Assembly: GCA_963665095.1 (NCBI GenBank)
Contig: OY762069.1
Coordinates: 576,001-640,000, forward strand
From: an uncultured Desulfobacter sp.
Lineage (GTDB): Bacteria > Desulfobacterota > Desulfobacteria > Desulfobacterales > Desulfobacteraceae
Reading direction: 5' to 3'
Length of the DNA stretch: 64,000 bases
The translations under genes were made by a program, and so were the position numbers. Shown here piece after piece: positions 1,595 through 34,134 of the stretch. Every line of letters begins with the position of its first letter. The first letter of the stretch is position 1. The notes below the pieces were generated by a model. The model made no database searches and was not told where the DNA came from. It saw only the letters and a list, made by a program, of their open reading frames with translations.

Positions 1595-1718
1595 AATGCC
1601 TCTGTTTTTGTGTTTTGTTTTCTGAATTAAGCAGCTTAAAATAATACACTTAAACAGAGGTTTATTCAATCTTTAACTGATTGAATTTTAAATAAATTTT
1701 GCTAATTAATTGTCCTTA

Positions 1719-2345
1719 GGTAAACCCCCGGCTCTGCCGGGGGACTCACCAAAGTTTGACATTTGCGGGGAAAAATGAAAGCCCATCCAAAAGTGAACCG
1801 CTCAAATTCACAAAGGAAAGGCTTTCATGAACAACGAATTAAGTTTATCCCACAGCCGTTGGGAATGCAAATACCATGTTGTGTGGATACCGAAGTACCG
1901 CAGAAAGACACTGTACGGCCAACTTAGGAAATACCTTGGGCAAGTTTTCAAGGATTTAGCAAGATGTAAGGAAAGCGAGGTTTTAGAGGGGCATATGATG
2001 CCCGACCATGTCCATATGCTGATCTCGATCCCTCCAAAGTACTCGGTGGCACAAGTTGTCGGATTTATCAAAGGTAAAAGTGCCATCCACATCGCTCGGA
2101 ATTATCTGGGCCATAGAAAAAATTATACAGGTCAGCAGTTTTGGGCCAGAGGTTATCACGTTTCAACTGTTGGGAGAGATGAAGATGTCGTTAGAGAATA
2201 CATCAGAACCCAGGAGAAAGAGGATCAGCGCTTAGAACAACTGACTTTATTCAGGTAATGTATTGCCACCTTTGAGGTGGCCATTAAATAACCGCTTTGA
2301 GCGGTTCACAAAATCAAGCCTCCGGCTTTGCCGGAGGTATATGAC
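1719..2345 (+). mobile_element. IS200/IS605-family element (tnpA only)
   Basis: Subterminal hairpins CCCCCGGCTCTGCCGGGGG (~1725-1743) and CCTCCGGCTTTGCCGGAGG (~2319-2337) flank a Y1 transposase; right end ...TATGAC. Confidence 0.88.
1827..2258 (+). CDS. tnpA: IS200-family Y1 (HUH) transposase
   Basis: YHVVWIPKYRR, HUH motif DHVHML, FWARGY, catalytic YIRTQ. Confidence 0.96.
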   Translation: MNNELSLSHSRWECKYHVVWIPKYRRKTLYGQLRKYLGQVFKDLARCKESEVLEGHMMPDHVHMLISIPPKYSVAQVVGFIKGKSAIHIARNYLGHRKNYTGQQFWARGYHVSTVGRDEDVVREYIRTQEKEDQRLEQLTLFR

Positions 2346-13619: not shown

Positions 13620-13854
13620 GATTGTCCTGGCCAGCCTGCATAATGTAAAAAAAGGGGAACACCTTCATTTTATACCCAAAACAGCTCTGAATATACCCTT
13701 TGCCGGAAATTTTGGAAATTAAAAAAATGCCCTGGAGACAGGCCGGCATCTGAAGCCCACAGCCCTGAAAATTATTTGTTTACATTTTATGCCTGGATGG
13801 GTATCTGTTTGATTTTTATTCATCGGGTACCGGAAATATGATACACCAGAGGGT

Positions 13855-16836: not shown

Positions 16837-17238
16837 TGGTATCGGCGAATAAGTATATCGTAATTTGGACAGAGGGTTACTGTCGTCAGATGTCTTTTTA
16901 TTTTGCTTGGCCTAGAAGAAAAGTTTTGCTAATATCCCGATATTTGTTGTAGCTGGCAATGGGCGGCATTTTGCCTTGAAAACCAGGAATGACAAGCAAT
17001 AATCCATTATAAAAAAAGGAACAGTCTGCTGAATCGGCGAAAAAGAACGGCGAATTTTTTTTCCTTAAAATTGTGGGTGAGCTGAGGAAATGGTCTGGGC
17101 TCTCCGGCAGAGAAGTACTTTTGACCACGATAAAGAATACTTGCAAAGTTTTCCGGATCCGGGTAATGCTTCCCCTGGTCCTGCAGCTGTGGTGAAACGA
17201 GGCGTTAACTCAATTCAAAAGGAAAGAGGGTATAAATC

Positions 17239-19617
17239 ATGTTCAAAAAATTTAATATCAGAACAAGGCTGATTGGCGGTTTCAGTGCCGTCCTTTTGAT
17301 TACTGTCGCGGTCGGGGGAATAGGGTATGTCTCTTTGAAAAGAGTGATGCATGCATCCCACCATCAGACGGGTATTGCAAACCTTGAAAAGGATTTCAGC
17401 AATCTCCTGGTTGATCAGGAACAATATTTAAGAACTGGTGAAAATGAAGACTTTATTAAAATTCAGGAAGGCGTTGATATCGTGGTCAAGCGGTTTGGCA
17501 GGATTGAATGGGATGCCATAGATGCCTCGGTGCTTGCCGCCTTTGAAAACAGTGCAAAGGAATACATAAGCCTTCTTAATGATCTTAAAAACCGCACAGA
17601 TACAAACAAGGTGCTGCTGAGTGACCTGCAGAATGTATCCGGTCGAATGAGTGCTATTTTTAAGGAGAGCATTGAAAAAGCACAAAAAGATATTCAGCAT
17701 GAGATCCTTGAGGCCAGCCACACCTATTTAAAAGAAAATGCCTATAAAGGAATTAAAAATATTCTCGAGGTCGGGTTGGCTGCAATTCAACACAGTTATA
17801 AAAGTGGCAGGACAAAAGAGGACGCCCTGGATATCCTGCGGCATCTTAAGTTTGACAAGACCAATTACTATTTTGCGGTGGACAGCCGTTATATGCTGCT
17901 TGCCCACGGTGCCAATGCCAAACTTGAGGGGATGGATTTTTCTGTCATCAAAGACAAGAAAACCGGTAAGACCTTTATGGTGGAGCTGGTGGATAATGCC
18001 GTGAAGGACGGGCAATCTTTAACTGAATATTTCTGGACCAAACCGGGGCATGGTGATGCAGTGTTCCCAAAGGTCACGGCAGCCTACTATTATAAACCCT
18101 GGGACGTCGTTATCTGTGCCGGGGTTTACCTGGATGATGTGGATGAGGCCAATGCCCGGATGGATAAAATTGTTTCAAAGGGGATTGGGGATATCAACAG
18201 CCTCAATAGTCTGGATATGGCCATGGTCAATGCCCGGCTGGCAAGTCTGTACCATATGAAATTTAATGCAGGGAAACAAAAAACCCTGGACCTTCTGGGA
18301 CAGGTCGTACAGGCACCCAATGCCCCCAGTGAGTTGAAAAAGTCTGCGTCCGCATATATGGCCAGCTGGGAAAAATATGCTGAGAATCTTGAAAAGGTTC
18401 AGGCCGTTGCAAATGCGGCCACGACCAATGTTGAATCCAGCGTTAAGACAGTGGGAAAGACCGGTAATGCCGTGGGCAAGATGATGGCTGACACGGAAAA
18501 ACAGGCTACATTTATCATTATGGTATTTATTATCGTCGGTATTGCCATCGGGGTTGTCATGGCCTTTATCCTGATCAGCTCCATTCTGGTTCCCATTCAC
18601 CGGACCAATGCCATGATCAAGGATATTGCCCAGGGCGAAGGAGACCTGACCAAACGCCTGGCCGTGGATTCCAAAGATGAGGTGGGAGAGCTTGCCGGAT
18701 GGATAGATATTTTTATTGAACGGCTTCAGAAAATGATCCGGGATATCGGCGCTGGTGTTGAAACCTTGTCAACGGCGTCCGGAAACATGTCCCAGGTGGC
18801 AGACGAAATTTCAGGCAATTCCGATCACACCGCGCATAAGGCCGCCACGGTGGCAGCATCCTCCGAGGAGATGAGCAGCAATCTGAACGGAGTGGCCGCA
18901 GCCTCTGAGCAGGCCACGTCAAATATCCAGACCATTGTGGCTGCCATTGAGCAGATGCGTACCACTATCCAGGAGATTTCAGAGAATATGGTTCGTGGCA
19001 GCACCACCACCCAGAACGCGGTCTCCCAGGCAAGGGAGGTTTCTGGCAAGGTGGATGAACTGGGCAGGGCAGCCGCTGAAATCAACAAGGTGACCGAAAC
19101 CATTGCTGATATTTCAGAACAGACCAACCTTCTGGCCCTGAACGCCACCATTGAGGCGGCAAGGGCCGGAGAAGCCGGCAAGGGCTTTGCCGTTGTGGCA
19201 GGGGAGATTAAGGATCTTGCCCATCAGACCGCCATGGCAACCCATGAGATCAGCTCCCAGATATCAAAGGTCCAGGATTCCACAAGGGAGTCTGTGGCTG
19301 TGATTGAGCAGGTGGTCGGGGTAATTAACGATATCAACGGTATTGTGACTGGAGTGGCTGCAGCCATGGAAGAGCAGTCCTCCGCCACCCTTGAAATTTC
19401 TGAGAATGTGGGACAGGCAGCCAAAGGTATTGCCGACGTCAATGATAATGTCAGTCAGATATCCACTGTGGCCGGCGGGGTCTCCCATGATGTGGCCGAG
19501 GTCAGTCATGCTGCAGAACAGATCAACTCCGGCTCCACCGTGGTAAAGGAAAATGCCGTTTCCATGGACAAACTGGCCGCCACCCTTCAGGAGATGGTGC
19601 ACCGGTTTAAAGTGTGA
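17239..19617 (+). CDS. Methyl-accepting chemotaxis protein (Cache, HAMP)
   Basis: EYFWTKPG Cache, [40 protein letters not shown]. Confidence 0.96.
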
Positions 19618-19650
19618 TCATTGGAAGCTGGTGGTTTGGCACAGCATTAC

Positions 19651-19679
19651 TTGCAATACAAAACATCGTATGGTATTAG
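19651..19679 (+). promoter_or_regulatory. Candidate sigma70 promoter of tetR with an operator-like site in its spacer
   Basis: TTGCAA-N17-TATTAG; AAAACATCGTATG at 19660-19672. Confidence 0.5.
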
Positions 19680-19754
19680 GCTCATGACCCAAAAGAGGTC
19701 ATGGGCCTACACTTGTTTTGACTCTTTTCTGTTTTAACATATTGTCTGTATAAC

Positions 19755-20372
19755 ATGGTGAAAATGAAGGACACATCAACAAAGAAAAAACTGGATGCAG
19801 CCACTAAAGCCAAGCTTGAGGAGGTAGTTAAGGCGCTTTTCAGTCAGCAGGATTTCCATCAGGTTCAGATGCGCAGTATTGCAAAGAAAACCGGCATCGG
19901 GCTTAATACCATTTACCTGCATTATGAAAGCAAGGAGCGGCTGCTCTTTTCTTTTATCGGTGACTGGATTCAGGCGCTTGATGACCGGGTGGTTGAGCAT
20001 CTGCAGGGGCTGGAGGACGTAAAGGAAAAGATCCGTAAAATAATCTGGGTCCTCCTTGATTTTTACGACAGAAATCCCGATATAGGCCAGATTCTTTTAT
20101 TTACGGTCCCTTTTAAAACCTGGAGTACGGATAAAACCTTCAGCCACAAGGATCTTTCAAGCCGGATCATTGCCATTTTAAGGGAGGGGCAGGCAAAGGG
20201 CGCCCTGGATACAACCATACCGGCTGAGTTCATGTTTGACGTCCTTTATGGTGTGATCCACCGCTCTGTTTATATCTCCTTTTTTAAAGGTGATCAGGAA
20301 CCGCTGACCTCCCGTATTGATTTGTTCCACAGTGTTTTATGGCGGGCTATCGAAGCCCGGGCCGACCTGTAA
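19755..20372 (+). CDS. TetR/AcrR-family regulator
   Basis: HTH MRSIAKKTGIGLNTIYLHYESKERL; ~200 aa. Confidence 0.93.
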   Translation: MVKMKDTSTKKKLDAATKAKLEEVVKALFSQQDFHQVQMRSIAKKTGIGLNTIYLHYESKERLLFSFIGDWIQALDDRVVEHLQGLEDVKEKIRKIIWVLLDFYDRNPDIGQILLFTVPFKTWSTDKTFSHKDLSSRIIAILREGQAKGALDTTIPAEFMFDVLYGVIHRSVYISFFKGDQEPLTSRIDLFHSVLWRAIEARADL

Positions 20373-20557
20373 GATTTCTGGGGCCTGCGAATTTCGTTTG
20401 CAGGCCTTTTTCTGCATAACACCACTTCTCTTACACCCACCCCGGGTTATTCCCGATAAACATCCCGGTTTTTCTTTATTTGATGGCACGTTGATTTGAT
20501 CATGCGCCTTGTCTGGCGGTTTGGTTTTCTAATCATTAAACCAGAGTTCAACATCTG

Positions 20558-20747
20558 AAAACATCGTTTTTTATGGCGACAACTGGCGCAGCTATGATGC
20601 AGCCTGTTAAATAATGTATTTTAAGAATATATAAGGAATTTCTTGACAAACATAAAACCCTATTATATTGCTAATTAAAAAACATTGTTTTCCATTTATT
20701 TAAAAGGTATTATGCTCATTAAATTATATATTAAAAAACATTATTAT
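20558..20747 (+). promoter_or_regulatory. AT-rich promoter region with candidate TetR operators
   Basis: TTGACA 20643-20648; AAAACATCGTTTT 20558-20570, AAAACATTGTTTT 20679-20691, degenerate copy 20735-20747. Confidence 0.55.
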
Positions 20748-20853
20748 CGATAATGAATATCTGGGTTGCCTGACGGGTCAAGTCAAGTTCCCTTAAACGC
20801 TCTTGACTCAAGGATGCCGGCCAGCGTTACCAATTACATTTAAAGGAGAAATA

Positions 20854-22665
20854 ATGGCTCAACAATTAGCAGACAGGCGGGATCAGGATTTTGTTGTCTG
20901 GGAACAGTTCGACAATGAGGCTCTTATTGAAAGCGAGCATTACGATGGATTTGATAAAAAAACCTGCCAGATGATCATCACCGAAGGCCGGAAAATAGCC
21001 ATCAAAGAGATCCTGCCCACCATTCGCGAGGGAGATCTTGAAGGCGCCCGGTTTGAGAACGGTGAGGTGTTTACGCCGAAATCCTTTAAACGGGTCTACG
21101 ATCTGTTACGGGAGAATGACTGGCAAAACCTGATGGAACCCGTGGAAATGGGCGGTCAGGGTGCGCCCCGGTTTGTGGATACCTGTGTCCGGGAATATAT
21201 GTTTACAAATTTTCCTTTGATGGCGTACCTGTGCACGGGTGCCGGCACTTCGCATATGATTTACAAGTACGGCACCCAGGAGCAGATTGACAGATATATG
21301 CCAAAGCTGATGTCTGCTCAGTGGGGCGGTACCATGCTGATGACCGAATCCCAGGCCGGGTCCGATATCGGTGCCATTGAAACGGTTGCCAAAAGAAATG
21401 ACGACGGCACGTTTTCAATCACCGGCAGCAAAATTTTTATCACCTCAGGTGAATCCGATCTGGTTGAAAATATTATCCATCCGGTTCTGGCCAGAATCGA
21501 AGGGGCACCGGCAGGCACCAAGGGCATCTCCATTTTTATTGTTCCCAAATATTTTGTAAACGACGACGGCTCCCTGGGAGACAGAAACGATGTGTGGTGT
21601 ACCGGTCTTGAACACAAACACGGCATTAAGGCAAGTGCCACATGCAGCATGACCATGGGCGCCAAAGGCGAGTGCAAAGGATTCCTTCTGGGCAAAGAAA
21701 ACCAGGGGGTCTCCATCATGTTCAATATGATGAACAGTGCCAGGATGGATACAGGGCTTCAGGCCCTGGCCTATGGGTCCGCCTGTTATCTTCTGGCGGT
21801 GAATTATGCCCGTGAGCGCGTTCAGTCCAGGGAGATCGGCCAGCCGCCAACAGCTCCGCCTGTGGCCATTATCAACCATCCGGACGTGCGCCGGAACCTG
21901 TTGTGGATGAAGTCATACATTTGCGGTTTAAGAAGCTTTTATCAGTTTACAAATCTATGTGCGGAAAAAGCCAGGCTGGCGCCATCACAAGAAGAGCGGC
22001 AGCTGAACAACGATCTCTACGAGCTGTTAACCCCCCTGATCAAAAGCTATACCGCCAACAGGGGCTATGAGGTCTGCGTCCAGGCCATGCAGGTATACGG
22101 CGGTGCCGGCTACACCCAGGATTACCTGGTGGAGCAGTTTGTCAGGGATTGTAAAATCGTCTCAATTTATGAAGGCACCTGCGGTATCCAGGCGGCCGAC
22201 CTGCTTGGCAGGAAAATTCCCATGAACAAGGCCAGGGGCTTTACGGCATTGATCAATGCCATGCTCAATACCGTGAGTGAGGCAAAGGATATTGACGGGC
22301 TGCAGGCCATGCCCGTCCAGGCTGAGGCCCAGGTGACAAAGCTTAAAGAGGTTGTCATGACCGTTGCCATGAGTGCGGCCGATCCCAAGGTGTTCAAGAC
22401 CGCCTTTGCCCACTCCTTGCCCCTGCTCGATGTTGTCGGCGATACCATCATGACCTGGATGCTGTTGTGGCGGGCGGTGACCGCCACAAAAAAGCTGGCC
22501 CTGAAACCCAAGGGAAAAGATGTGGTCTTCTATAACGGTCAGATTGTAACCGCCAGATTTTTTATTGAAACCATTTCCCCGGCCAGTATCGGTAAAATGA
22601 AGGGGATACAGTCATTGAGCACGGCGGCCATGGATATGGAGGACGATGCCTACGGCAGTCTGTAG
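20854..22665 (+). CDS. Acyl-CoA dehydrogenase (long, ~600-aa type)
   Basis: GTMLMTESQAGSD, GSKIFITSGE, QVYGGAGY, IYEGTCGIQA; AAGGAG RBS before ATG 20854. Confidence 0.95.
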   Translation: MAQQLADRRDQDFVVWEQFDNEALIESEHYDGFDKKTCQMIITEGRKIAIKEILPTIREGDLEGARFENGEVFTPKSFKRVYDLLRENDWQNLMEPVEMGGQGAPRFVDTCVREYMFTNFPLMAYLCTGAGTSHMIYKYGTQEQIDRYMPKLMSAQWGGTMLMTESQAGSDIGAIETVAKRNDDGTFSITGSKIFITSGESDLVENIIHPVLARIEGAPAGTKGISIFIVPKYFVNDDGSLGDRNDVWCTGLEHKHGIKASATCSMTMGAKGECKGFLLGKENQGVSIMFNMMNSARMDTGLQALAYGSACYLLAVNYARERVQSREIGQPPTAPPVAIINHPDVRRNLLWMKSYICGLRSFYQFTNLCAEKARLAPSQEERQLNNDLYELLTPLIKSYTANRGYEVCVQAMQVYGGAGYTQDYLVEQFVRDCKIVSIYEGTCGIQAADLLGRKIPMNKARGFTALINAMLNTVSEAKDIDGLQAMPVQAEAQVTKLKEVVMTVAMSAADPKVFKTAFAHSLPLLDVVGDTIMTWMLLWRAVTATKKLALKPKGKDVVFYNGQIVTARFFIETISPASIGKMKGIQSLSTAAMDMEDDAYGSL

Positions 22666-22668
22666 TTA

Positions 22669-22856
22669 GTGTTAGTACGGCTCGAAGAGGAGCTTCAGCT
22701 CACAAAGCCACCCACCTGCGGCGTTGCTGCACAAAGCTGCCAAAACATATAATCGGGTCTCACGTACTGGAGTACGCTTGCGGTTGCAGCTTTGCTTGCG
22801 CCTTGTATCTGGGCAACTTTGTGGGCATGCGCCCCTCTTGCGAGCCGTCCAAACAC
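22669..22856. repeat. Long palindromic intergenic element, copy 1 (REP/MITE-like or structured RNA)
   Basis: Ends GTGTTAGTACGGCTCG / CGAGCCGTCCAAACAC; shares CTGCGGCGTTGC and GCCTTG(T/C)ATCTGGGCAACT with copy 2. Confidence 0.8.
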
Positions 22857-22981
22857 CAAACACGGGGTTTTCCAAGATGCCAGATTTTAGATGCCAGATT
22901 TTAGATGTCGAATGCACATTATGTTCCTGATGTATTTACGTGTTAACGCCAATAATTTTTTTAAAAAAGGAGTGTTACATC

Positions 22982-24676
22982 ATGCCAATACCTGAAAAAA
23001 TCCTGGATCGTGCAAACAAACTTTTAGCCGATGTCGTTCCAAACTGTGCCGACTACATTGCCCAATATGCGGAAGAAAAACCGGAAACCACCGCATTTAT
23101 CATGTATGCCACAGGCAAACAGGTCACCTGGCAGCAATTTAATGATGCCGTGGACATCTATGCCGCAGCACTGCTTTCCAAAGGATTAAAAAAAGGCGAT
23201 ATCGTTGGCACGATTCTCACGCTCTCAGAGGAACACATCTTTCTGATGTATGCCTGTTTCCGGATCGGCGTGATTATTGCCCCTATGGATATCAGGCTCA
23301 AGGAGACGGAAGTTCTGTACTCCATAGGAAAGATCAATCCAAAGGCTGTCTTTTTCCTCGGAAAAACACCTGTCACTGATTTCAGGCCCATGATCGCCGA
23401 TGTCATGAAAGACGTGCCTTCCGTCAGCCTGTGGGTGCAGATTCAAAAAAGTGATGACAGCGTGATTGACGGGGCTGAAAGCCTCAAAGATTTTCTGGGT
23501 GATCCGACACCCGATGCCATCGCGGCAGTTAAAAACGCCAATGCCCTGACTGAAAAACGAGACCCCTGCCTGATTACCTTTACAACAGGTTCCACAGGTT
23601 CTCCGAAGGCCGCACTTCTCTGCCATGAAAACATTTTGATGCAGAATATCTCATTTGCATGCCTCTCCATGATTGACTCAGATACGGTTTTTCTGGATAA
23701 CCTGCCGCCTTCCCATGTGGCCTGCACCACAGAGGTCATGTACACCACATTTTTTGCCGGGGGAACGCTGGTGATCATGGATTTTGATCCCAAACAGTGC
23801 TTTGAGGCCATTGAGAAACACAAGATTAATCATATCTTGGGCATTCCGGCCATGTTCAGCATGATGTGGCAGTTCCCCGACTATGACAAGTACGATAAAT
23901 CCTCACTGAACGTGGCTGTATTCGGCGGCCAGCAGGTGCAGCGGCCCTGGGTGGAGAAACTGCAGGCCATGGTTCCCAATATTTGCACAGGCCTTGGCAT
24001 CACCGAATGTGCCGGTGCCACCACCAGCAACTGTATTCCGTGTACCGTGGATGATGTCATGGACGGCATCGGTCTGTGCATGCCGCACTGCCCACTCACC
24101 GTACGGGAGCCCATGAATTTTGACGGAACTGCCGGGGTGGAAATGGCTCCCGGTGAGATCGGTGAGATCTGCTTTGAGGGCCCACAGGTATTTCTCGGGT
24201 ATCTGAATGACCCAAAGAAAACGGCTGAGACCATTTCAAAGGAAGGCATTTTGTACACCGGGGATGTGGGAAGCTATGATGAAAAGGGGCTTCATCTGGC
24301 AGGTCGCAGGAAATTCATCATAAAACCCAAGGGCTTTCAGGTATTTCCCGGGGATGTGGAGGAGCATATCGCCCAGGCCCTGAAGGGACGGGTCGGGACT
24401 GTGGCGGTGGTGGGTGTCGAGCACGAGATATTTACCGACGGTGTCATGGCCTTTGTCGAGGTGCCGGAAGACCAGAATGTGACGGCTGAAGATGTCTACA
24501 ACGCCTGCCGGAGTATCTCCTCCTATTCGCGTCCCTCCCATGTGGAGATAATTAAAGTAGGAGAGTTTCCCCTTACCCGGACGGCAAAGATAGATTATAT
24601 GCGCCTGAAAGCACTGGCCCAGGACGTGGTGGATAAACTCAGAGCTGAAGGAAAATGGGACAGAGCGCAGATGTAA
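22982..24676 (+). CDS. AMP-dependent acyl-CoA synthetase
   Basis: FTTGSTGSPKA, GLGITE, YTGDVG, TAKID; AAGGAG RBS before ATG 22982. Confidence 0.93.
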   Translation: MPIPEKILDRANKLLADVVPNCADYIAQYAEEKPETTAFIMYATGKQVTWQQFNDAVDIYAAALLSKGLKKGDIVGTILTLSEEHIFLMYACFRIGVIIAPMDIRLKETEVLYSIGKINPKAVFFLGKTPVTDFRPMIADVMKDVPSVSLWVQIQKSDDSVIDGAESLKDFLGDPTPDAIAAVKNANALTEKRDPCLITFTTGSTGSPKAALLCHENILMQNISFACLSMIDSDTVFLDNLPPSHVACTTEVMYTTFFAGGTLVIMDFDPKQCFEAIEKHKINHILGIPAMFSMMWQFPDYDKYDKSSLNVAVFGGQQVQRPWVEKLQAMVPNICTGLGITECAGATTSNCIPCTVDDVMDGIGLCMPHCPLTVREPMNFDGTAGVEMAPGEIGEICFEGPQVFLGYLNDPKKTAETISKEGILYTGDVGSYDEKGLHLAGRRKFIIKPKGFQVFPGDVEEHIAQALKGRVGTVAVVGVEHEIFTDGVMAFVEVPEDQNVTAEDVYNACRSISSYSRPSHVEIIKVGEFPLTRTAKIDYMRLKALAQDVVDKLRAEGKWDRAQM

Positions 24677-24704
24677 CGCGGCAGGTAAAAAAGCGGTTTC
24701 ATGT

Positions 24705-24752
24705 CCCGGCAACTAAACGGTCCGGCAACTAAATGGCCCGGCAACAGATAAA
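24705..24752 (+). repeat. Three 16-bp imperfect tandem repeats before the GRE RBS
   Basis: CCCGGCAACTAAACGG / TCCGGCAACTAAATGG / CCCGGCAACAGATAAA. Confidence 0.8.
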
Positions 24753-24764
24753 GGAGATATAGGC

Positions 24765-27266
24765 ATGTTACAGACAGCAGAGCACAAATATTCAATAAAA
24801 CCCTCCCCAAAGGTGGAAAAACTTCGGGCCACATACATCGAAGCGGCCAAGCGTGAGGAGCCCTCCTACAACATCTGCTCTGACCGGGCCATTACGCGGG
24901 TGATGAAAGAGACAGAAGGTGAACCCATGGCCCTGAGACGGGGTAAAGCCTTTGCCGCTGTCCTCAAAGAGGTGCCGGTGGACATTTTCCCTGATGAACC
25001 GTTTGTGGGCTGGGTGGGCGGTGATCCGCTCTCCGCACAGATCAGCGCTGAACAGCGGGGGGCAAGAATGGAAACCGAACTGGATTATTTCAAACTCAGT
25101 AATGAAGAAGACAGACAAATTATCCGGGATGAAATCATCCCTTACTGGAAGGGCGACGGGAACTGGAAACGCCACTGGTTTGCCCGGGCCTATCAGATGC
25201 TGCCGGAGGAGACGCGGTATCTGCTGTATGGCGACCCTGACCCTGAATTGGCAAAAATCGGGATCCTGACAAATTCCAATGCACCGGCCCAGCCCCAGAT
25301 CAAGGTGCCTGCCCAGCCCAAACGGCTTGGCATGGGGATTATCATAGAGATCATGAGCCGTCATCATATCGGTCACAGCAGTTTCGGCTATGAGAAAGTG
25401 TTGAAAAAGGGGTTCCTGGGTATCCGGCAGGATGCGGAAGAACGCCTGGCGCGCATTGATGAAAACGACCCCGGGGAGATGAAGAAAAAGCCCTTCCTTA
25501 AGGGTGTCATTCTTGCCATGGACGCGGCAGCCGGCATTGGCAAACGGTTTGCAGAAAAAGCCCGCAAGATGGCTGAAGCGCAGAAGGACCCGGTAAGAAA
25601 ACAGGAACTGCTGGTGATTGCCGATACCTGCGAACAGGTCCCGGCAAACCCTGCCACAACTTTCCGGGAGGCCCTGCAGTCGGTCTGGTTCACCCAGATC
25701 ATGAACTGGTGGGAGACCCCTCTTGTTCTGGCCGTATCACCGGGGAAGGTGGACCAGTATCTTTATCCCTATTTTAAAGCGGATATGGCAGCCGGCCGCC
25801 TGTCAAAAGAGGAGGCCCAGGAACTCATCGACTGCTGGCTGATGCGGTTTGCGCAAGGGGTGGCCCCCTATGTGCCGCAATCCGGTGCCGCCTTTCACCT
25901 GGATGTGGGGGGATTGAAAGCGGACGGGAGCGATGCCACCAATGAACTCTCCTTCATGTTCATCGAAGGGATGATGCATACCCGGATGATTGAACCGAAC
26001 ATGGGGGTTTTAGTTCACAGCAAGACACCGGACGATTTTCTGATCAAGGCATGTGAGCTCTGTTCCCTGGGGCTGGGACATCCCATGTTCTTAAACAATG
26101 ATGTCATGGTTGAAAATATGCTCTCCCGGGGAACATTGGGCGGGCCTCCGGTTCCCATTGAACTGGCCCGCACCAGCGGCTGCATCGGATGCAACGAGCC
26201 CCATGTCACCAATTATGATTCAGAGTTTAATATCGGGGCGGTTTTTCAGATGCCCACAGCCCTGGAGCTGGCGCTTTTCAATGGTGTAAGCCGGACCTTT
26301 AAAACAAAAATGGGGCTTGAAACCGGTGATGCCAGCCAGTTTGAGACCTTTGAAGCGCTTAAGGCCGCCTTTGAAAAACAGTTAAAGTTTATCATCACCC
26401 AGTGCGGCATTGCCATCAGGACCTTTGAAACCGCTATGGCAGAGGTGTATCCCACGGTATACCAGTCCGCCTTGATCGAAGACTGCATTGAAAATGGCAT
26501 CGCCCGTGAAGCGGGCGGGGCCCGGTTTAACTTTGGTCCGGCTGTCGCCACCCTGGGTGCTACGGATGTGGGCAACTCTCTGGCCGCCGTTAAAAAACTG
26601 GTATTTGATGAAAAGCAGATGAGCATGGGCCAGTTGCTGGAAATGCTGGACAGTAACTTCAAGGACCAGGATGTCATGCGCCAGCGGCTGCTGAATGCAC
26701 CGAAATTCGGTAATGATGATGACTATGTGGATCAGGAAGTGGCATGGGTTATGGATACATTTAACAAAGAGGTCATCAAACATAAAAATACAAGGGGCGG
26801 ATATCTGCTGCCCTATCAGAATCCTTTGTCCGGATATGTGGGAATGGGCCGCCTCATGGGGGCACTTCCTTCAGGCCGGAAAGCCGGAGAACCCCTTTCC
26901 GACGGGATATCACCCACCTGTGGCTCAGATGTCAATGGCCCTACTGCGGTGCTGAACTCAGCCGGCAAACTGGATAATGCCTCCATTTTCTTAGGCCAGA
27001 CACTGAATATGCGCCTGGACGGCGAGATGTTTGGCTCGGATGAGGGGGTTTACCGGATGGCAGCACTTTTGCGGACATTTGTAGATCTTAAGATCCATCA
27101 CATCCAGTTTAACCTGGTCTCCTCTGATACACTAAGGGCTGCCCAGGAAAATCCTGCGGAGTACCAGGACCTGATGGTGAGGGTTGCAGGCTATGTGGCC
27201 TATTTTGTCAACCTGAGCAGGGGGCTGCAGGATAGTATTATCCAGCGTACTGAACACCGCATTTAA
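24765..27266 (+). CDS. Glycyl radical enzyme (PFL2/eliminase-like), substrate unknown
   Basis: 833 aa; Gly loop LMVRVAGYVAYF, Cys loop IGCNEP, PATTFREALQSVWF, DQYLYPY, APKFGNDDDYVD. Confidence 0.95.
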   Translation: MLQTAEHKYSIKPSPKVEKLRATYIEAAKREEPSYNICSDRAITRVMKETEGEPMALRRGKAFAAVLKEVPVDIFPDEPFVGWVGGDPLSAQISAEQRGARMETELDYFKLSNEEDRQIIRDEIIPYWKGDGNWKRHWFARAYQMLPEETRYLLYGDPDPELAKIGILTNSNAPAQPQIKVPAQPKRLGMGIIIEIMSRHHIGHSSFGYEKVLKKGFLGIRQDAEERLARIDENDPGEMKKKPFLKGVILAMDAAAGIGKRFAEKARKMAEAQKDPVRKQELLVIADTCEQVPANPATTFREALQSVWFTQIMNWWETPLVLAVSPGKVDQYLYPYFKADMAAGRLSKEEAQELIDCWLMRFAQGVAPYVPQSGAAFHLDVGGLKADGSDATNELSFMFIEGMMHTRMIEPNMGVLVHSKTPDDFLIKACELCSLGLGHPMFLNNDVMVENMLSRGTLGGPPVPIELARTSGCIGCNEPHVTNYDSEFNIGAVFQMPTALELALFNGVSRTFKTKMGLETGDASQFETFEALKAAFEKQLKFIITQCGIAIRTFETAMAEVYPTVYQSALIEDCIENGIAREAGGARFNFGPAVATLGATDVGNSLAAVKKLVFDEKQMSMGQLLEMLDSNFKDQDVMRQRLLNAPKFGNDDDYVDQEVAWVMDTFNKEVIKHKNTRGGYLLPYQNPLSGYVGMGRLMGALPSGRKAGEPLSDGISPTCGSDVNGPTAVLNSAGKLDNASIFLGQTLNMRLDGEMFGSDEGVYRMAALLRTFVDLKIHHIQFNLVSSDTLRAAQENPAEYQDLMVRVAGYVAYFVNLSRGLQDSIIQRTEHRI

Positions 27267-27392
27267 GTGTTTGAACGGGCAGTCACCCCCTCTGCGGCGT
27301 TGCAGGGTAATTTGCAGTCCTCACAACCAAAAGGTTGCTCCGGTTGCAAATTACCCTGGGCCTTGCATCTGGGCAACTGTTCGTCCAAACAC
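27267..27392. repeat. Long palindromic intergenic element, copy 2
   Basis: Ends GTGTTTGAACGGGCAGT / ACTGTTCGTCCAAACAC; inner stem CAGGGTAATTTGCA / TGCAAATTACCCTG. Confidence 0.8.
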
Positions 27393-27426
27393 CGCCATTG
27401 AGCCATAAACCATAATGTAAAGGAAC

Positions 27427-28332
27427 GTGACTATCAAACCGGAACAGGGGTTAGTTTATAATATTGAAAAATTTGCCGTGAATGATGGGCCCGGCATCAG
27501 GACACTGGTTTTTATGAAGGGATGCCCCTTAAGATGTCTGTGGTGCTCATCCCCCCAGACCCAGCAGCATTCCATAGAGATGTTGTATGATCCTGACCTG
27601 TGTCAGCAATGCCTGACCTGCCGGAATATCTGCGAAAATAACGCCATAGAATTTACCACAGATCATCAGTTGAATTTTAAGGTCCGGCAATGTGATATGT
27701 GCAAACGTTGTGTTGATGCCTGTCCGGAAAAAGCACTTGAAATGGCAGGCAGATATATGACGGTGGATGAACTTTTCAGCCAGGTCGTCAAGGACGCTTC
27801 TTTTTTCAGAAGGTCCCAGGGGGGGGTAACGGTGGGGGGCGGTGAGCCCACCATGCAGCATGGATTTGTGGCCGCATTTCTGAAAAAATGTAAATCCCGG
27901 TATATCCATACTGCCATTGAAACCTGCGGCCACTGCACCTGGGATAAAATGGCGGCAATTCTTGAATACACGGACATGGTATTTATGGATATCAAGCATC
28001 TTAATGATGAGCAGCATCAAAGGATAACAGGCGTCTCCAATCGTCTTATCCTGGAAAATGCACGCAAAATTGCCGAGATAAAACCATTGACCATCCGGAT
28101 TCCCATTGTCCCGGGTTGTAATGATTCAGAACAGAATATCAGGGACACGGCCCGATTCGCCGCTCAGCTGGGAGAAAAACTGCAGAAAATCGAACTGCTG
28201 CCCTACCATGAACTGGGGGTGGACACCTACAGACGGCTGGGCATGACCTATCCGCTTAAAGGCATAAAACCGCCGGACCCAGAAACCATGAACCGGCTGC
28301 AGGAGATCGCTGATTTCTGCTTTACTGAATAA
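27427..28332 (+). CDS. Glycyl-radical activating enzyme (radical SAM with 2x[4Fe-4S] insert)
   Basis: DGPGIRT, KGCPLRCLWC, CQQCLTCRNIC, CDMCKRCVDACP, GGGEP, LLPYH. Confidence 0.96.
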   Translation: MTIKPEQGLVYNIEKFAVNDGPGIRTLVFMKGCPLRCLWCSSPQTQQHSIEMLYDPDLCQQCLTCRNICENNAIEFTTDHQLNFKVRQCDMCKRCVDACPEKALEMAGRYMTVDELFSQVVKDASFFRRSQGGVTVGGGEPTMQHGFVAAFLKKCKSRYIHTAIETCGHCTWDKMAAILEYTDMVFMDIKHLNDEQHQRITGVSNRLILENARKIAEIKPLTIRIPIVPGCNDSEQNIRDTARFAAQLGEKLQKIELLPYHELGVDTYRRLGMTYPLKGIKPPDPETMNRLQEIADFCFTE

Positions 28333-28493
28333 ATGCAAAAAATCAATTCCCTTGCCTGTGCCTTCGGGGCGGCCACATTTTGTGCTGTCGCCCTGTCATA
28401 CAATAGCAGCCATGGGCTGACCTGGTGTATCAACACCCAGACTTTTGACGGATACTATGACAAGCAGATGATATCAATACAAAGGAGCTGAAA

Positions 28494-29702
28494 ATGAGTA
28501 CAAAAGAAGTTGTATTTGTGGCGGGAGTCCGCACGGCATTTGGCCGGATGGGCGGTTCCATACGAGACGTTTATGCTACCAAACTTGCCGGGATTACCAT
28601 TGAGGGATTGCTGGACAAAACAAATATTCATGAAAAGGCCCACGTGGATTGCGTGTTCCTGGGCTCTGCCACCCATTGTTCCGTGGCCCTGAATCCGGCC
28701 CGGTTTGCAGTGCTCTCCACCCGGCTGCCCAAAACCACCTCTGCCTCCTATGTGGAGATGCAGTGCGGGTCCGCCATAGATTCCATCAACCATGCCGCCT
28801 GGAAAATCCTGGCCGGCCAGGCAGACATCATCATTGCCGGCGGTATGGAATCCTACAGCCAGATGGCTTTTAAGGTGCCTACCTCCACCCCTCCCTACCG
28901 GATGAACCCGCCCATGCCCGTTATACCGACGCTGTCACCTTTGGAAGAGGAGTGTATCGGCATGGGGCTGACCGCGGAAAATCTGGCTGAAAAATACGAA
29001 ATTCCCAGGGAAGCCTCAGACGAGTTTGCCTATAACAGCCAGATGAGAGCCAAGGCTGCCATGGAGGCCGGCTATTTTGATGAGGAGATCATTCCGGTGC
29101 CATTTGCCGCTACCCGCAAGACCCCGGCCTGGCAGTTTGACAAGGATGAACATCCCCGGCCTGAATCCACCCTTGAGGGGATGGCCAAGCTGCCGCCGGT
29201 GTTCAAAAAGGGGGGAACGGTGACGGCCGGCAACTCCTCGGGCCAGAACGACGGGGCTGCCTTTGTCCTGATGATGAGTGCGGAAAAGGCCGGTGAGCTG
29301 GGATATACCCCCATGGCCAGGTGGCTCTCCGGGGCAGATGTGGGCTGCGATCCCAGGATCATGGGGATCGGTCCGGCCGCAGCCATGCCCATGGCGGTCA
29401 GCCGGGCAGGATTGAGAATGTCGAATATGGATGTGATGGAGTGCAACGAGGCCTTTGCCGTCCAGAACCTGGCCGTGATCAAGGATATTGAACAAAATAC
29501 CGGGGAAACCATCGACATGGCCAAGTGGAATCCTTACGGCGGCGCCATTGCCTTTGGCCATCCCAACGGGGCCAGCGGCGCCAGGATCTGTATGTTCGCC
29601 ATGCGCCATATGATACGCAACGGCGGACGGTATGGCATCTTTGCCTCCTGCTGCGGCGGGGGCCTGGGCGTGGCCACGGTCATTGAGAATCTGCAAAGAT
29701 AA
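28494..29702 (+). CDS. Thiolase (acetyl-CoA C-acyltransferase)
   Basis: QCGS, GGMES, NEAFA, GHPNGASG, CCGGG. Confidence 0.96.
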   Translation: MSTKEVVFVAGVRTAFGRMGGSIRDVYATKLAGITIEGLLDKTNIHEKAHVDCVFLGSATHCSVALNPARFAVLSTRLPKTTSASYVEMQCGSAIDSINHAAWKILAGQADIIIAGGMESYSQMAFKVPTSTPPYRMNPPMPVIPTLSPLEEECIGMGLTAENLAEKYEIPREASDEFAYNSQMRAKAAMEAGYFDEEIIPVPFAATRKTPAWQFDKDEHPRPESTLEGMAKLPPVFKKGGTVTAGNSSGQNDGAAFVLMMSAEKAGELGYTPMARWLSGADVGCDPRIMGIGPAAAMPMAVSRAGLRMSNMDVMECNEAFAVQNLAVIKDIEQNTGETIDMAKWNPYGGAIAFGHPNGASGARICMFAMRHMIRNGGRYGIFASCCGGGLGVATVIENLQR

Positions 29703-29824
29703 TTTTTTTATCGTTTTTTTATTGGACATGCCCGGATAATCCGGCGCTAATCTTATGGATTGCAGTGACCCGGACCCGGTCCTGATCTAACGGGGACGGT
29801 CACCGTTATTAGGAGAACAAACCC

Positions 29825-30604
29825 ATGAATTTGAACAAGATGATATTTGAAAAAAAAGATGGGCTGGGGTGGGCCCGGTTCAACCGGCCTGAAAAACTCA
29901 ATGCCCTGAACAGTGAGGTATTTGAGGATATCGGCACCATTGTCCAGGCCTGTGAGAGGGATGACGAGGTAAAAGTTCTGGTTATTACAGGGTCGGACAA
30001 GGTGTTTGCCGCCGGTGCCGACATTGACACCATGGCAAATGGCAGTATCAGGGATGCCCTTGCCCTGACAGACCAGTGCATGTTTGTCACCGAGCGCCTG
30101 GCAGACCTGGCCAAACCCACCATCGCCGCCATCTCAGGCTATGCTCTGGGCGGCGGTCTTGAGGTGGCGCTCAGCTGTGACTTCAGAATCGGGGATGACA
30201 CGGCCATGGTGGGACTGCCTGAAATCACCCTGGGAATCATTCCGGGTGGTGGGGGCACCCAGCGTCTGCCCCGACTGATCAACCCCAGCAAAGCACTGGA
30301 AATGATTATGACAGGAGAGATCGTAGACGCCCAGAAGGCCCTTGACTTGGGGATACTCAATCACAAGGCGGCAAAAGGAGAACTGGAAGCTGCCGTGACA
30401 ACCCTTGCCAAAAAACTGATGGCCAAACCGGCCATGGGGATCCGTGCCGCGAAATCCGCTGTGCGTAAAGGGTTGAACACCTCTTTGAAAGACGGCATTA
30501 TCATTGAACAGCACCTCTTCGGCATGTTGTTTGGTACCCTTGACCAGAAAGAAGGCATGGCGGCATTTCTTGAAAAACGGCGGCCTGAATTCAAGGGCTG
30601 CTGA
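29825..30604 (+). CDS. Enoyl-CoA hydratase/isomerase
   Basis: FAAGADI, GGGLE, LPEITLGIIPGGGGTQRL (both catalytic Glu present). Confidence 0.95.
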   Translation: MNLNKMIFEKKDGLGWARFNRPEKLNALNSEVFEDIGTIVQACERDDEVKVLVITGSDKVFAAGADIDTMANGSIRDALALTDQCMFVTERLADLAKPTIAAISGYALGGGLEVALSCDFRIGDDTAMVGLPEITLGIIPGGGGTQRLPRLINPSKALEMIMTGEIVDAQKALDLGILNHKAAKGELEAAVTTLAKKLMAKPAMGIRAAKSAVRKGLNTSLKDGIIIEQHLFGMLFGTLDQKEGMAAFLEKRRPEFKGC

Positions 30605-30629
30605 AAGCGCCTGACACCTCAAAAAAAGC

Positions 30630-30660
30630 AAAACAGGGCTGTTTCCGGCCCTGTTTTATT
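30630..30660 (+). terminator. Intrinsic terminator of the GRE/beta-oxidation operon
   Basis: AAAACAGGGC-loop-GCCCTGTTTT followed by a T-rich tract. Confidence 0.75.
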
Positions 30661-30837
30661 CCTTTCTTCCCTTTTTTAGTTTAATGATTAGTGGTACTAT
30701 TGAATTAAGTATACCAATCTCTTAACAACAATTCTATCGCTTAAGATCCATTGCACAGGAGCGCTGCATTTTTCCCATGCGCTCCAGGATGGTCATAAAA
30801 GCTTCGATTCAGAGGAATGGCGGGAGGATAAAAAAGG

Positions 30838-33800
30838 GTGACTCGCAAGCCAAGTTATAAAGACCTCGAAACCCAGGTTCATCAATTAAGGGAAGAATTG
30901 CAAAATCTTGCACAGGCTAAAGATGATCTGGAAAAAAGCGAGAAGCGGTATCGATCCATGGTCGAAGCCAGTTCCGACTGGTTGTGGGAAATAGATGCCA
31001 ATGGACGATATATCTATTCCAGTCCTAGAATTCGCGAACTCCTTGGCTATGAACCGGAAGAGGTGATAGGGCTTTTGCCTTTGGATCTTATGACCAGGGA
31101 GGAGGTACAGCGGTTGGAGGCTGGCTTTGGTGAGGTTGTAGGAAATCAGCAGCCATTTACCTTGCTTGAAAATGAGAATCTTCACCGGGACGGCCGGCGG
31201 GTGGTTCTTGAGACCAGCGGGGTGCCGGTCTTTGACTCCGGCGGGACGTTTATGGGCTATCGGGGTGTGGACCGGGACATCACCCAGCGAAAACTCATTG
31301 AAGAGGCCTTGCGAAAATCCCGCCGTGATCTTGAAGTGCGGGTGGAGGAACGTACCGCAGAGCTGTCATCCATGAACGCTGTGTTAGAGGCGGAAATCAC
31401 CGAGCGGAAACGGGCGGAGGAGAGACTGTCCCGCAGACAGCGGCAACTGCAGAAGGCTGTTTTCGATCTGGAACAGGCCAGCAATGTGCTGCAGCTGATC
31501 ATAGAATCCATTCCTGTCAGAGTCTTCTGGAAAGACCGTGATTTGACTTATCTGGGGTGCAATAAACTGTTTGCCCGTGATGCCGGATTAAACCATCCGC
31601 AGGAGCTTGTCGGAAAGGATGATTTTGCCATGGGCTGGAATAAGGATGCCAAGGCCTATCGTGCGGATGACCAGCAGGTCATGGCATCCGGCCGTTCCAA
31701 AATAAATTTTGTGGAATTGCAGACCACCCCGGATGGCTCGCAGATCTGGTTAAGTACCAGCAAGGTGCCGCTGCGTTCCGCAGACGGTGAGATCTTCGGG
31801 GTGCTGGGGATATACGAAGATATCACCGCGCGCAAACAGGCTGAGGATGAGCTCAAACAGGCAAAAGAGATGGCTGAGGAAGCAACAAAAGCCAAATCTG
31901 AGTTCCTGGCAAACATGAGCCATGAAATACGTACCCCCATGAATGCCATCATCGGGCTTTCACATCTGCTCAGTGGCACATCCTTAACCCGCAAACAATC
32001 GGATTATCTTGCCAAAATCAGTGCCGGCGCCCAAAACCTTCTGGGTATTATCAATGACATTCTGGATTTTTCAAAGATAGAGGCCGGGAAACTGCATATT
32101 GATTACACGGCCTTTGACCTGGAAACTGTGTTTGACGGCCTGTCCAATCTGATAAACATCAAGGCGGTTGAAAAGGGGATTGAGCTGGTATTTGACATAT
32201 CAGGCGATGTCCCTTTGCTGCTGAAAGGCGATCCATTGCGTCTGGGACAGATTTTGCTGAATCTGGCTAATAATGCGGTTAAATTTACCGAACGGGGTGA
32301 AATCAAAATCAGCGCCAGAGTGGAGGAACGATGGGAAAAAAGTGTGTTATTATATTTCAGCGTCACAGATACCGGCATCGGCATGACTGAGGTACAAAAG
32401 AAAAAGCTGTTTCAGGCCTTTTCCCAGGCCGATACCTCCATCTCCCGCAAATATGGGGGCACGGGGCTGGGGTTGACCATTTGTAAAAACTTAAGCGAGC
32501 TGATGGGCGGAACCATCGGGGTAAACAGCAGTTACGGCAAAGGCTGTGAGTTCTTTTTTACGGTGCAGGTGGATATTCAGGAACAGGTTCAAATCAAAAG
32601 AGAGATTATCCCCAATGTATTGAAAGACCTCAGAGCCCTGGTGGTAGACGATAACAGATCGGCGCGGCGTGTGATGGAAAAATATTTAGACCATTTTGCT
32701 TTCCGTGTTGATTCCGTTGAGTCAGGGGAGCATGCAGTCCGGTGCGTTTCAGATGCCCTGCAGGGGAATGATCCGTACAAGTTGATTATTATGGACTGGA
32801 AAATGGGGGGCATGAATGGTGTTGATGCATCGAAAAAGATTCTGGCGCTGGCAGACCAGAAAGTCGCGCCCAGAATTATCATGGCCACAGGTTATGGGCG
32901 TGAAGACGTGATGGCGCAGGCCAGGGCTGCAGGCATAGACTCGTTTCTGATTAAACCCGTGAGCCAGTCTTTGATGTTTGATACCATCATAGACGCATTG
33001 GGGGTAAGTGTGTCAGACACCAGTGATGCTGCGCACAGAAAAATCCTTGAAAATTATGAACTGGATCCCATCCGGGGGGCCAGGATTCTGCTGGTTGAGG
33101 ATAATGAAGTGAACCAGCAGGTTGCGGTGGAGCTGCTGGAATCCGAGCAGTTTATTGTTGATGTTGCAGCCGACGGGCGACAGGGTGTGGACAAATACCT
33201 GGCTTCTGCCGAAACACCCTACGACATTATATTGATGGATCTGCAGATGCCAGTGATGGACGGCATTACCGCAGCAAAACTGATTATTCAGAATTCAGCA
33301 TTTGCAGTGCCTCCGGTCATTGCCATGACCGCGGATGCCATGAGCGGTGTTGATAAAAAGGTGCTGGATGTGGGGATGAAAGATTATGTGACAAAACCCA
33401 TCAATATAACCCGATTTTTTCAAACATTGAGGAAATGGATCCAGCCGGGGGAAAGAACAGTCATAGAAAAAAACAAAATCCCAAATGACGGCCCGGCCAT
33501 CCGTATCCCTGACATTGAAGGCGTGAATGTCCGGGACGGATTAAAAAGGATCGGTGGCGATCCCGCAGCCTATGTAAAGGTACTTAAATCGTTTATAACC
33601 CGTCACGCAGAGTTTGCCGGGCAGGTGATGGACGCCTTGGAAAATAATGACCGGCAGACAGCGATTCGTTTGGCCCATACCCTGAAAGGTGTTGCCGGTA
33701 ATATCGGAGCCATGGGGCTGGCCGGCAGCAGCCGGGAACTGGAAAGCCGGCTGCGGACAGGAGATGGGGCGGTTCAATTGATTGATGAATACCTTAAAAA

Positions 33801-34134
33801 TACGGACGCGGAGCTGCAGCAGGTTATTGCAGCCGTTACAATGGCGCTGCAAAAGATCAGGATGCCGGAATCTGGAAAAAACTGCCCCAATGATGCGGAA
33901 CGCCTTAACATGCTTGTTCGCCAATTGGAAACCGCGTTGCAGGACTATGATACACAATCTTCCGAGATAGTGGCGCAACTGGAAGGCATGTCAGACAACG
34001 CTGATTTCGTAAAGACCGTTTCTGACATGCGAAAAGCCATTGATGCCTATGACTACCAACGGGCACTGGAACTCATTAATGATTTAAAGGGAAACATTGA
34101 GGGGGGGGGTGCCCTGAAGGGATATGACCATTAA
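30838..34134 (+). CDS. Cytoplasmic hybrid histidine kinase (2 PAS, HisKA, HATPase, 2 REC, Hpt)
   Basis: FLANMSHEIRTPMN, GGTGLGL, IIMDWKM, ILMDLQMP, AHTLKGVAGNIG. Confidence 0.95.
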   Translation: MTRKPSYKDLETQVHQLREELQNLAQAKDDLEKSEKRYRSMVEASSDWLWEIDANGRYIYSSPRIRELLGYEPEEVIGLLPLDLMTREEVQRLEAGFGEVVGNQQPFTLLENENLHRDGRRVVLETSGVPVFDSGGTFMGYRGVDRDITQRKLIEEALRKSRRDLEVRVEERTAELSSMNAVLEAEITERKRAEERLSRRQRQLQKAVFDLEQASNVLQLIIESIPVRVFWKDRDLTYLGCNKLFARDAGLNHPQELVGKDDFAMGWNKDAKAYRADDQQVMASGRSKINFVELQTTPDGSQIWLSTSKVPLRSADGEIFGVLGIYEDITARKQAEDELKQAKEMAEEATKAKSEFLANMSHEIRTPMNAIIGLSHLLSGTSLTRKQSDYLAKISAGAQNLLGIINDILDFSKIEAGKLHIDYTAFDLETVFDGLSNLINIKAVEKGIELVFDISGDVPLLLKGDPLRLGQILLNLANNAVKFTERGEIKISARVEERWEKSVLLYFSVTDTGIGMTEVQKKKLFQAFSQADTSISRKYGGTGLGLTICKNLSELMGGTIGVNSSYGKGCEFFFTVQVDIQEQVQIKREIIPNVLKDLRALVVDDNRSARRVMEKYLDHFAFRVDSVESGEHAVRCVSDALQGNDPYKLIIMDWKMGGMNGVDASKKILALADQKVAPRIIMATGYGREDVMAQARAAGIDSFLIKPVSQSLMFDTIIDALGVSVSDTSDAAHRKILENYELDPIRGARILLVEDNEVNQQVAVELLESEQFIVDVAADGRQGVDKYLASAETPYDIILMDLQMPVMDGITAAKLIIQNSAFAVPPVIAMTADAMSGVDKKVLDVGMKDYVTKPINITRFFQTLRKWIQPGERTVIEKNKIPNDGPAIRIPDIEGVNVRDGLKRIGGDPAAYVKVLKSFITRHAEFAGQVMDALENNDRQTAIRLAHTLKGVAGNIGAMGLAGSSRELESRLRTGDGAVQLIDEYLKNTDAELQQVIAAVTMALQKIRMPESGKNCPNDAERLNMLVRQLETALQDYDTQSSEIVAQLEGMSDNADFVKTVSDMRKAIDAYDYQRALELINDLKGNIEGGGALKGYDH

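Follow-up and report, generated by a model that had tools for sequence, protein, structure and literature searches.

A 64,000-nucleotide stretch of DNA from an uncultured Desulfobacter sp. (contig OY762069.1, positions 576,001 to 640,000; hereafter the window) carries a cassette of seven intact open reading frames (ORFs), all on the + strand, in which a glycyl radical enzyme (GRE) and its activating enzyme lie among genes of acyl-CoA metabolism: a TetR-family regulator, an acyl-CoA dehydrogenase, an acyl-CoA ligase, the GRE, the activase, a thiolase and an enoyl-CoA hydratase (Table 1). Pfam and NCBIfam profiles bear out the families that an initial annotation had named for all seven, and catalytic motifs are intact in every cassette enzyme checked. 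The cassette is real, and its GRE, almost certainly an uncharacterised enzyme, belongs to an unassigned subfamily with a testable predicted substrate class.

The protein combines PFL-like and Gly_radical domains with an adjoining activase and with the two loops on which the annotation had relied, RVAGY (Gly809) and IGCNEP (Cys476 and Glu478), as expected of a PFL-like GRE. It scores below the NCBIfam cut-off of every named GRE, with top scores at about half: HpsG 547 bits against 1000, HypD 526 against 1100 (NF043068), CutC 495 against 1050, HpfG 448 against 1000, IAD 407 against 1100, HPAD 304 against 1150 and PFL 98.5 against 994 (TIGR01255). We rejected CutC, HpsG and HpfG as identities on these equivalog cut-offs, HypD also on its specificity residues, which are not kept, and PFL also on the GCNE loop, which has no adjacent Cys-Cys; fumarate addition, the sulfonate enzymes and a microcompartment system were likewise rejected as identities or settings. 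The closest solved structures are CutC, glycerol dehydratase (GD) and HypD, with BSS, MasD and HPAD weaker. Among the 120 homologues that a search listed (48-100% identity), no name is more specific than 'glycyl radical protein' or 'formate C-acetyltransferase', and their hosts include Desulfomonile tiedjei (76%), Desulfatitalea (D. tepidiphila 64%), Syntrophomonadales, Syntrophales and Asgard archaea; a search of the ESM Atlas returned generic PFL-like clusters only. In a FastTree phylogeny of 87 sequences, rooted on a distant paralogue after one duplicate locus and one non-GRE row had been dropped, the window GRE falls in a core clade with a support of 0.996, which sits within a set of several outer subclades. 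Scores and tree together place it in a clade without a named member, and the annotation's view that this GRE is unassigned is supported.

The family is patchily distributed across Desulfobacterota, Syntrophales, Syntrophomonadales and Asgard archaea. GRE matches occur in 0 of 60 relatives, 0 of 400 genomes of the phylum, 2 of 400 of the order and 1 of 160 of the family, none of which carries the whole cassette; in the order to which genome G819 belongs the count is 11 of 301, and in that of G818's class it is 7 of 151 genomes, both counts including the centre genome and some outer-clade matches. In a literature search with most subscription papers outside its reach and supplements excluded, we found nothing on this clade or on a GRE for epoxide-derived or fatty-acid diols. 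The accessible text of a 2026 review (PMC13450708) describes no GRE of this kind, and the terms 'fatty acid' and 'epoxide' never occur in it.

The active site argues for eliminase-like catalysis in an altered pocket. His204, Cys476, Glu478 and Gly809 are invariant in all 39 core sequences and align with GD His164, Cys433, Glu435 and Gly763; the CxE motif of the Cys loop is present in 39/39 core sequences and 94/94 overall. For GD, Glu435 is the proposed base for the C1 hydroxyl and His164 the proposed acid for the leaving hydroxyl (PMC13450708, section 5.6). The eliminase-type residues expected of the GRE are therefore kept. The accompanying premise that CxE typifies eliminases holds only in part: eliminases have the motif, but so do the decarboxylase HPAD (Cys503/Glu505) and the GRE isomerases (same review), so CxE is necessary and no proof of elimination. 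On sequence grounds, the chemistry is probably of the eliminase or isomerase type.

Five GD residues that we take to line the pocket, His281, Ser282, Tyr339, Asp447 and Tyr640, align with Leu322, Ala323, Ala376, Ile490 and Asn686 of the GRE, and the first four of these positions are mostly small or apolar across the core clade. Residues invariant in the clade include His201, His378, Asp380, Asn477, Gln685, Asn686 and Leu688, and Arg199, one place from HypD Arg156, is found in 32 of the 39. A clade-specific insertion of about 38 residues precedes His204: the Trp128-His204 stretch spans 77-84 residues in 39/39 core sequences against 36-66 in 55 outer members. From these features we infer a chemistry like that of the diol dehydratases, carried out in a pocket that is roomier and less polar.

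What would such an enzyme do among acyl-CoA genes? Tentatively and by analogy, we favour a radical dehydration in which the GRE turns a bulky vicinal diol into an oxo-acyl chain; the likeliest diol is a dihydroxy fatty acid or the CoA ester of one whose chain has been shortened. As in GD, the activase would install a radical on Gly809, the Cys476 thiyl radical would abstract hydrogen from a CH-OH carbon, Glu478 would deprotonate the hydroxyl on that carbon, and His204 would protonate the neighbouring leaving hydroxyl to give a ketone; the ligase, dehydrogenase, hydratase and thiolase, to judge from gene content, would activate and shorten the chain. HpsG, HplG and YbiW offer a precedent for the radical conversion of secondary alcohols to ketones (PMC13450708). 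Hydrogen abstraction at C3 of a 3,4-diol would yield a 3-oxoacyl chain ready for thiolase cleavage, and the lack of a 3-hydroxyacyl-CoA dehydrogenase in the cassette would then be explained, because the 3-oxoacyl group would arise without that enzyme. A 4-oxo product could, after reduction, enter the route of AbfD, a dehydratase encoded elsewhere in this genome, and epoxide hydrolases encoded beside the GREs of some relatives would supply the diol.

The cassette has neither microcompartment nor alcohol/aldehyde dehydrogenase genes among its seven, as first reported. Microcompartment shell genes do cluster elsewhere in the genome (G000:C1:5736533-5750978), with no GRE match nearby, and six further GREs (29-34% identity) lie at G000:C1 near 340k, 461k, 2874k, 3008k, 5863k and 6326k, the one near 461 kb with HypD-like motifs. 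Measured against a complete beta-oxidation operon (ligase, dehydrogenase, hydratase, 3-hydroxyacyl-CoA dehydrogenase and thiolase), the cassette lacks the 3-hydroxyacyl-CoA dehydrogenase, none being found between thiolase and hydratase or elsewhere in it; nine strong homologues are encoded elsewhere in the genome. The acyl-CoA dehydrogenase has an intact IYEGT motif, and its PDB matches include an entry named FadE5. The ligase falls under the cut-off of all 25 NCBIfam models listed and has zero PDB matches at 1e-40; its start and that of the dehydrogenase are likely ones, chosen from ribosome-binding sites and database protein lengths. The activase has a CxxxCxxC motif and two CxxCxxCxxxC motifs.

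Gaps of 88-480 bp separate the genes, two of them (window 22667-22880 and 27267-27400) holding a repeat element with about 64 genomic copies, and a single transcript is no more than plausible. TetR is likely the cassette repressor. The region downstream of its gene contains promoter-like boxes (TTGACA at 20643-20648 and TATATT at 20664-20669, 15-nt spacer), read from the sequence and absent from the promoter-scan list, and repeats of the type AAAACATT that may be operators, though chance in AT-rich DNA would also suit. The terminator said to close the operon exists as a hairpin, just beyond the end coordinate first given (30604); its case is its position and 12-pair stem, because terminator-like elements in the region number 21 against 16.7 +/- 4.1 by chance.

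Table 1. Features of the GRE cassette and its setting (window coordinates).
Feature	Position	Strand	Basis
TetR-family regulator	19755..20372	+	PF00440
AT-rich putative promoter region	20373..20853	+	read from sequence
Acyl-CoA dehydrogenase, ~600-aa type, 603 aa	20854..22665	+	Pfam
AMP-forming acyl-CoA ligase, subfamily without name, 564 aa	22982..24676	+	PF00501/PF13193
Glycyl radical enzyme (GRE), 833 aa	24765..27266	+	PFL-like and Gly_radical domains
GRE activating enzyme with ferredoxin-like insert	27427..28332	+	TIGR02494, 353 bits against cut-off 174
Thiolase	28494..29702	+	TIGR01930; motifs intact; 92% identity to sister-operon copy
Enoyl-CoA hydratase	29825..30604	+	Pfam; 86% identity to sister-operon copy
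Terminator-like hairpin, T-runs on both strands, 12-pair stem	30630..30657	+	terminator scan
Variable insertion, approximate extent, ~20 kb	13620..34130	.	flanks close together in congeners

A sister operon in the same genome (G000:C1:4.174-4.188 Mb; locus L033, G000:C1:4172000-4190000), the source of the thiolase and hydratase identities in Table 1, runs in the order tetR, abfD, dehydrogenase, thiolase, 3-hydroxyacyl-CoA dehydrogenase, hydratase, MaoC, Fe-S protein and ligase. Its abfD product matches 4-hydroxybutyryl-CoA dehydratase (1U8V) at E 4.5e-206, and its ligase is in two ORFs. Genomes G009 and G014 have a similar operon but not the GRE; the G014 locus (L080) has two AbfD-like genes (85% and 37%). 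Relative to the sister operon, the window copy appears from its gene content to have lost 3-hydroxyacyl-CoA dehydrogenase. In other hosts the GRE is flanked by relatives of sister-operon members, namely ligases at 43-57% identity and nitronate-monooxygenase (NMO)-like proteins at 55-59%. By analogy, we infer that cassette and sister operon may both serve hydroxylated acids whose oxygen blocks beta-oxidation.

How conserved is the association? GRE orthologues lie on contigs of 55,801 bases (96% identity), 71,715 (87%) and 23,441, 51,446, 155,911 and 415,409 (86%), and orthologues of the ligase and the dehydrogenase, in three 86-96% clusters, lie on contigs of exactly those six sizes. This evidence is indirect but strong that the dehydrogenase-ligase-GRE trio, the three genes that the comparison covered, travels together in close relatives (gene order, thiolase and hydratase were outside it). 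For the wider neighbourhood we examined +/-6 kb at 27 loci with GREs at least 56% identical, leaving out duplicates (L022, L030, L055), the window, outer-clade loci and five 31-33% loci; some of the 27 are kin (L023/L052, L056/L058, L019-L021, L006/L060), L001, L002 and L005 are in one genome, and several flanks are short. Within that distance lie an activase at 23 loci, a second GRE at 13, a ligase at 10, a binding protein at 7, an SDR and a DUF1330-like protein at 5 each, an alpha/beta hydrolase at 4, and a thiolase, a thiamine diphosphate (ThDP) enzyme and an NMO-like protein at 3 each; an acyl-CoA dehydrogenase occurs once and an enoyl-CoA hydratase never. The annotation's conserved beta-oxidation neighbours thus stand for the trio in close relatives and for a ligase that recurs beside the GRE, but not as a full set across the clade: with beta-oxidation genes this rare around the 27 loci, the full operon is not the clade's rule.

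A ligase directly adjoins the GRE or activase at 9 of the 27 loci (maps read by eye), in three subfamilies 21-30% alike and distinct from that of the window ligase. Genes resembling epoxide hydrolases, of three types only 25-32% alike, lie within 6 kb at four loci, against 2-5 such genes in the whole genome of each of five hosts; this recurrence and the adjoining ligases count in favour of the diol reading. All four products have HGxP, Asp-Trp nucleophile, cap Tyr and His motifs, which we take to mark such enzymes, and a search with one of them gave soluble epoxide hydrolases as the nearest matches (E 6.5e-71). For the ThDP enzyme the nearest match is benzaldehyde lyase, followed by 2-hydroxyacyl-CoA lyase.

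Several loci have features of their own. At seven tandem loci (L017:7489-12511, L018:3037-8018, L023, L052, L054, L059, L074) a single activase is followed by a second GRE and then the core-clade GRE; the second is of a distinct subclade (HYGH and GCYEP, ~43% identical), below all NCBIfam cut-offs, and the two are possibly a stereo- or regio-complementary pair. The DUF1330-like small proteins lie by the GRE or activase (L016:1050-1424, L023, L024:8580-8966, L052, L057:11299-11679), and with those queries none was found in G000. Divergent GRE-like proteins of ~700 aa with GCCNVE and RLYGF/RLFGF stand beside the core GRE at L002:3671-8949 and L005:7607-9700, and the core-clade GRE itself is in two ORFs, through frameshift or assembly error, at L002:9880-12379 and L024:9974-12432.

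The cassette and three flanking signalling-type genes lie in a segment whose flanks are 0.3-0.9 kb apart in 3 of 24 congeners (G003, G005, G021); in two others the distance is 6 and 13 kb. The cassette therefore lies within a variable insertion. Transposase-like ORFs, judged from sequence, occupy a low-GC stretch at window 98-2255.

A good deal weighs against the diol reading. The pocket was read from alignments only. At 14 of the 27 loci (several with short flanks) there is no ligase, thiolase, acyl-CoA dehydrogenase, hydratase or CoA transferase within 6 kb; the ligase count is near background, five hosts holding 21-69 ligases each, and we dropped it as evidence for that reason. The cassette has no epoxide hydrolase, none of the four loci that do is on the window's branch of the tree, and the association was spotted after the fact, among kin. 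The ThDP enzyme at three loci fits an aryl diol equally well. The absent 3-hydroxyacyl-CoA dehydrogenase may be a simple loss, with the nine homologues able to act in trans, and a chain being shortened would still need that activity. Besides PFL, no GRE with a CoA-linked substrate appears in the accessible text of the 2026 review (PMC13450708). A fuller proposal, which we regard as rather unlikely, makes this clade the first GRE family for oxidised lipids. Its members would take vicinal dihydroxy fatty acids derived from epoxides, perhaps as their CoA esters, and dehydrate them to 3-oxoacyl chains. Sulfate reducers, syntrophs and Asgard archaea would thereby have a hitherto undescribed way of using epoxy and dihydroxy fatty acids anaerobically, and the second GRE of the tandem loci would serve the other stereo- or regioisomer.

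The nearest competitor keeps the radical elimination, or a ring-opening, and changes the substrate to a neutral one: an aryl or alkyl glycol, a glyceryl ether or a hydroxylated cyclic ether, whose aldehyde, ketone or alcohol product would be oxidised by enzymes encoded elsewhere before ligase activation and beta-oxidation. Doubtful in itself, it is an almost equal rival to the annotation's candidate substrate, a substituted carboxylic acid or its CoA ester, and draws on the same catalytic residues; SDRs (5/27) and the ThDP enzyme (3/27) suit it, as do Val493 and Leu688 in place of HypD Tyr450 and Thr645, which bind the carboxylate (PMC7077986). The GRE-adjacent ligases are mutually unrelated (20-32%), as would be expected if they act on a downstream product. 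The cassette, however, has no oxidoreductase for an aldehyde or alcohol, and Arg199, near the HypD Arg156 position, might offset a carboxylate. Alternatively, GRE and activase might serve a separate pathway, either carried along as passengers in an insertion of mosaic make-up or tied to the beta-oxidation genes by a common regulon and nothing more. The near-copies of thiolase and hydratase in an operon type found without a GRE, the variable insertion, the genome-wide repeats in the gaps and the locus-to-locus change of neighbours all allow this, but it is unlikely given that dehydrogenase, ligase and GRE orthologues stay together over 86-96% divergence and that at L025 a ligase sits between GRE and activase.

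A radical decarboxylase of a substituted acid (HPAD, IAD, PAD or AAD type) would account for acid-activating genes beside the GRE, and CxE is present in HPAD while Glu502 is essential in IAD (PMC13450708). It is nonetheless quite improbable: HPAD and IAD are the lowest-scoring single-Cys GRE models, the AAD structure 7E7L reaches only 315 bits, and the reaction would remove the group that the ligase needs. The essential Gln484 of PAD, if it is the Cys+2 residue as its numbering suggests, is also unmatched. Least probable by far is fumarate addition, with an X-succinate synthase that feeds beta-oxidation, a role put forward for divergent Asgard GREs. Beta-oxidation genes do follow such enzymes, the activase is of the ferredoxin type, and Asgard GREs 29-33% identical are labelled Ass/Bss in PMC8163825. 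Yet, as the annotation had also argued, Glu478 is invariant and small subunits were not found: in the two gaps listed, no candidate ORF starts plausibly outside the repeat element, and the 88 bp between ligase and GRE leave no room for one. BSS and MasD are moreover among the weakest PDB matches (258 and 315 bits against 455-467).

This is one of many unassigned GRE clades, and its substrate is guessed. All eliminases that the 2026 review covers take small polar substrates, and many are from gut bacteria; by the same account whole GRE clades are without validation, and a function has yet to be characterised for any archaeal PFL-like GRE (PMC13450708). A GRE for bulky hydrophobic diols, if confirmed, would add a new substrate class and an oxidised-lipid route in sediments and digesters, and would caution against labelling such genes PFL or alkylsuccinate synthase. 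The cassette supplies GRE, activase and ligase, making the substrate class directly testable, and D. tiedjei and D. tepidiphila are cultured carriers.

Among known systems, the B12-independent glycerol dehydratase (1R8W) and 1,2-propanediol dehydratase (5I2A, 9RCO) give the best profile match to the GRE (605 bits). They share its single Cys, CxE and acid/base pair (His164/Glu435, here His204/Glu478), and differ in the five pocket residues, the insertion before the His and the neighbourhood, where CoA enzymes take the place of microcompartment and alcohol/aldehyde dehydrogenase genes. HypD, the trans-4-hydroxy-L-proline dehydratase (6VXC), has equivalents of its His160, Cys434 and Glu436 in the GRE, whereas its Asp278, Asp339, Phe340, Tyr450 and Thr645 become Leu322, Ala375, Ala376, Val493 and Leu688 (HypD residues from PMC7077986). 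The eliminases CutC, IslA/IseG, HpsG and HpfG and the isomerases HplG, YbiW and PflD have the fold family and CxE in common with the GRE, but it scores about half of their NCBIfam cut-offs or less, and their substrates are small polar or charged molecules (PMC13450708); the IslA/IseG C-S lyases, with an Arg-Gln-Arg sulfite anchor, were compared by score only and at 416 and 405 bits fall below glycerol dehydratase. The AbfD operon (1U8V) is the closest parallel in gene content, with near-identical thiolase and hydratase, a related dehydrogenase, a ligase and TetR. It keeps 3-hydroxyacyl-CoA dehydrogenase and has an AbfD-type dehydratase in place of the GRE, and that dehydratase clears a hydroxyl that blocks beta-oxidation, the role to which we liken that of the GRE.

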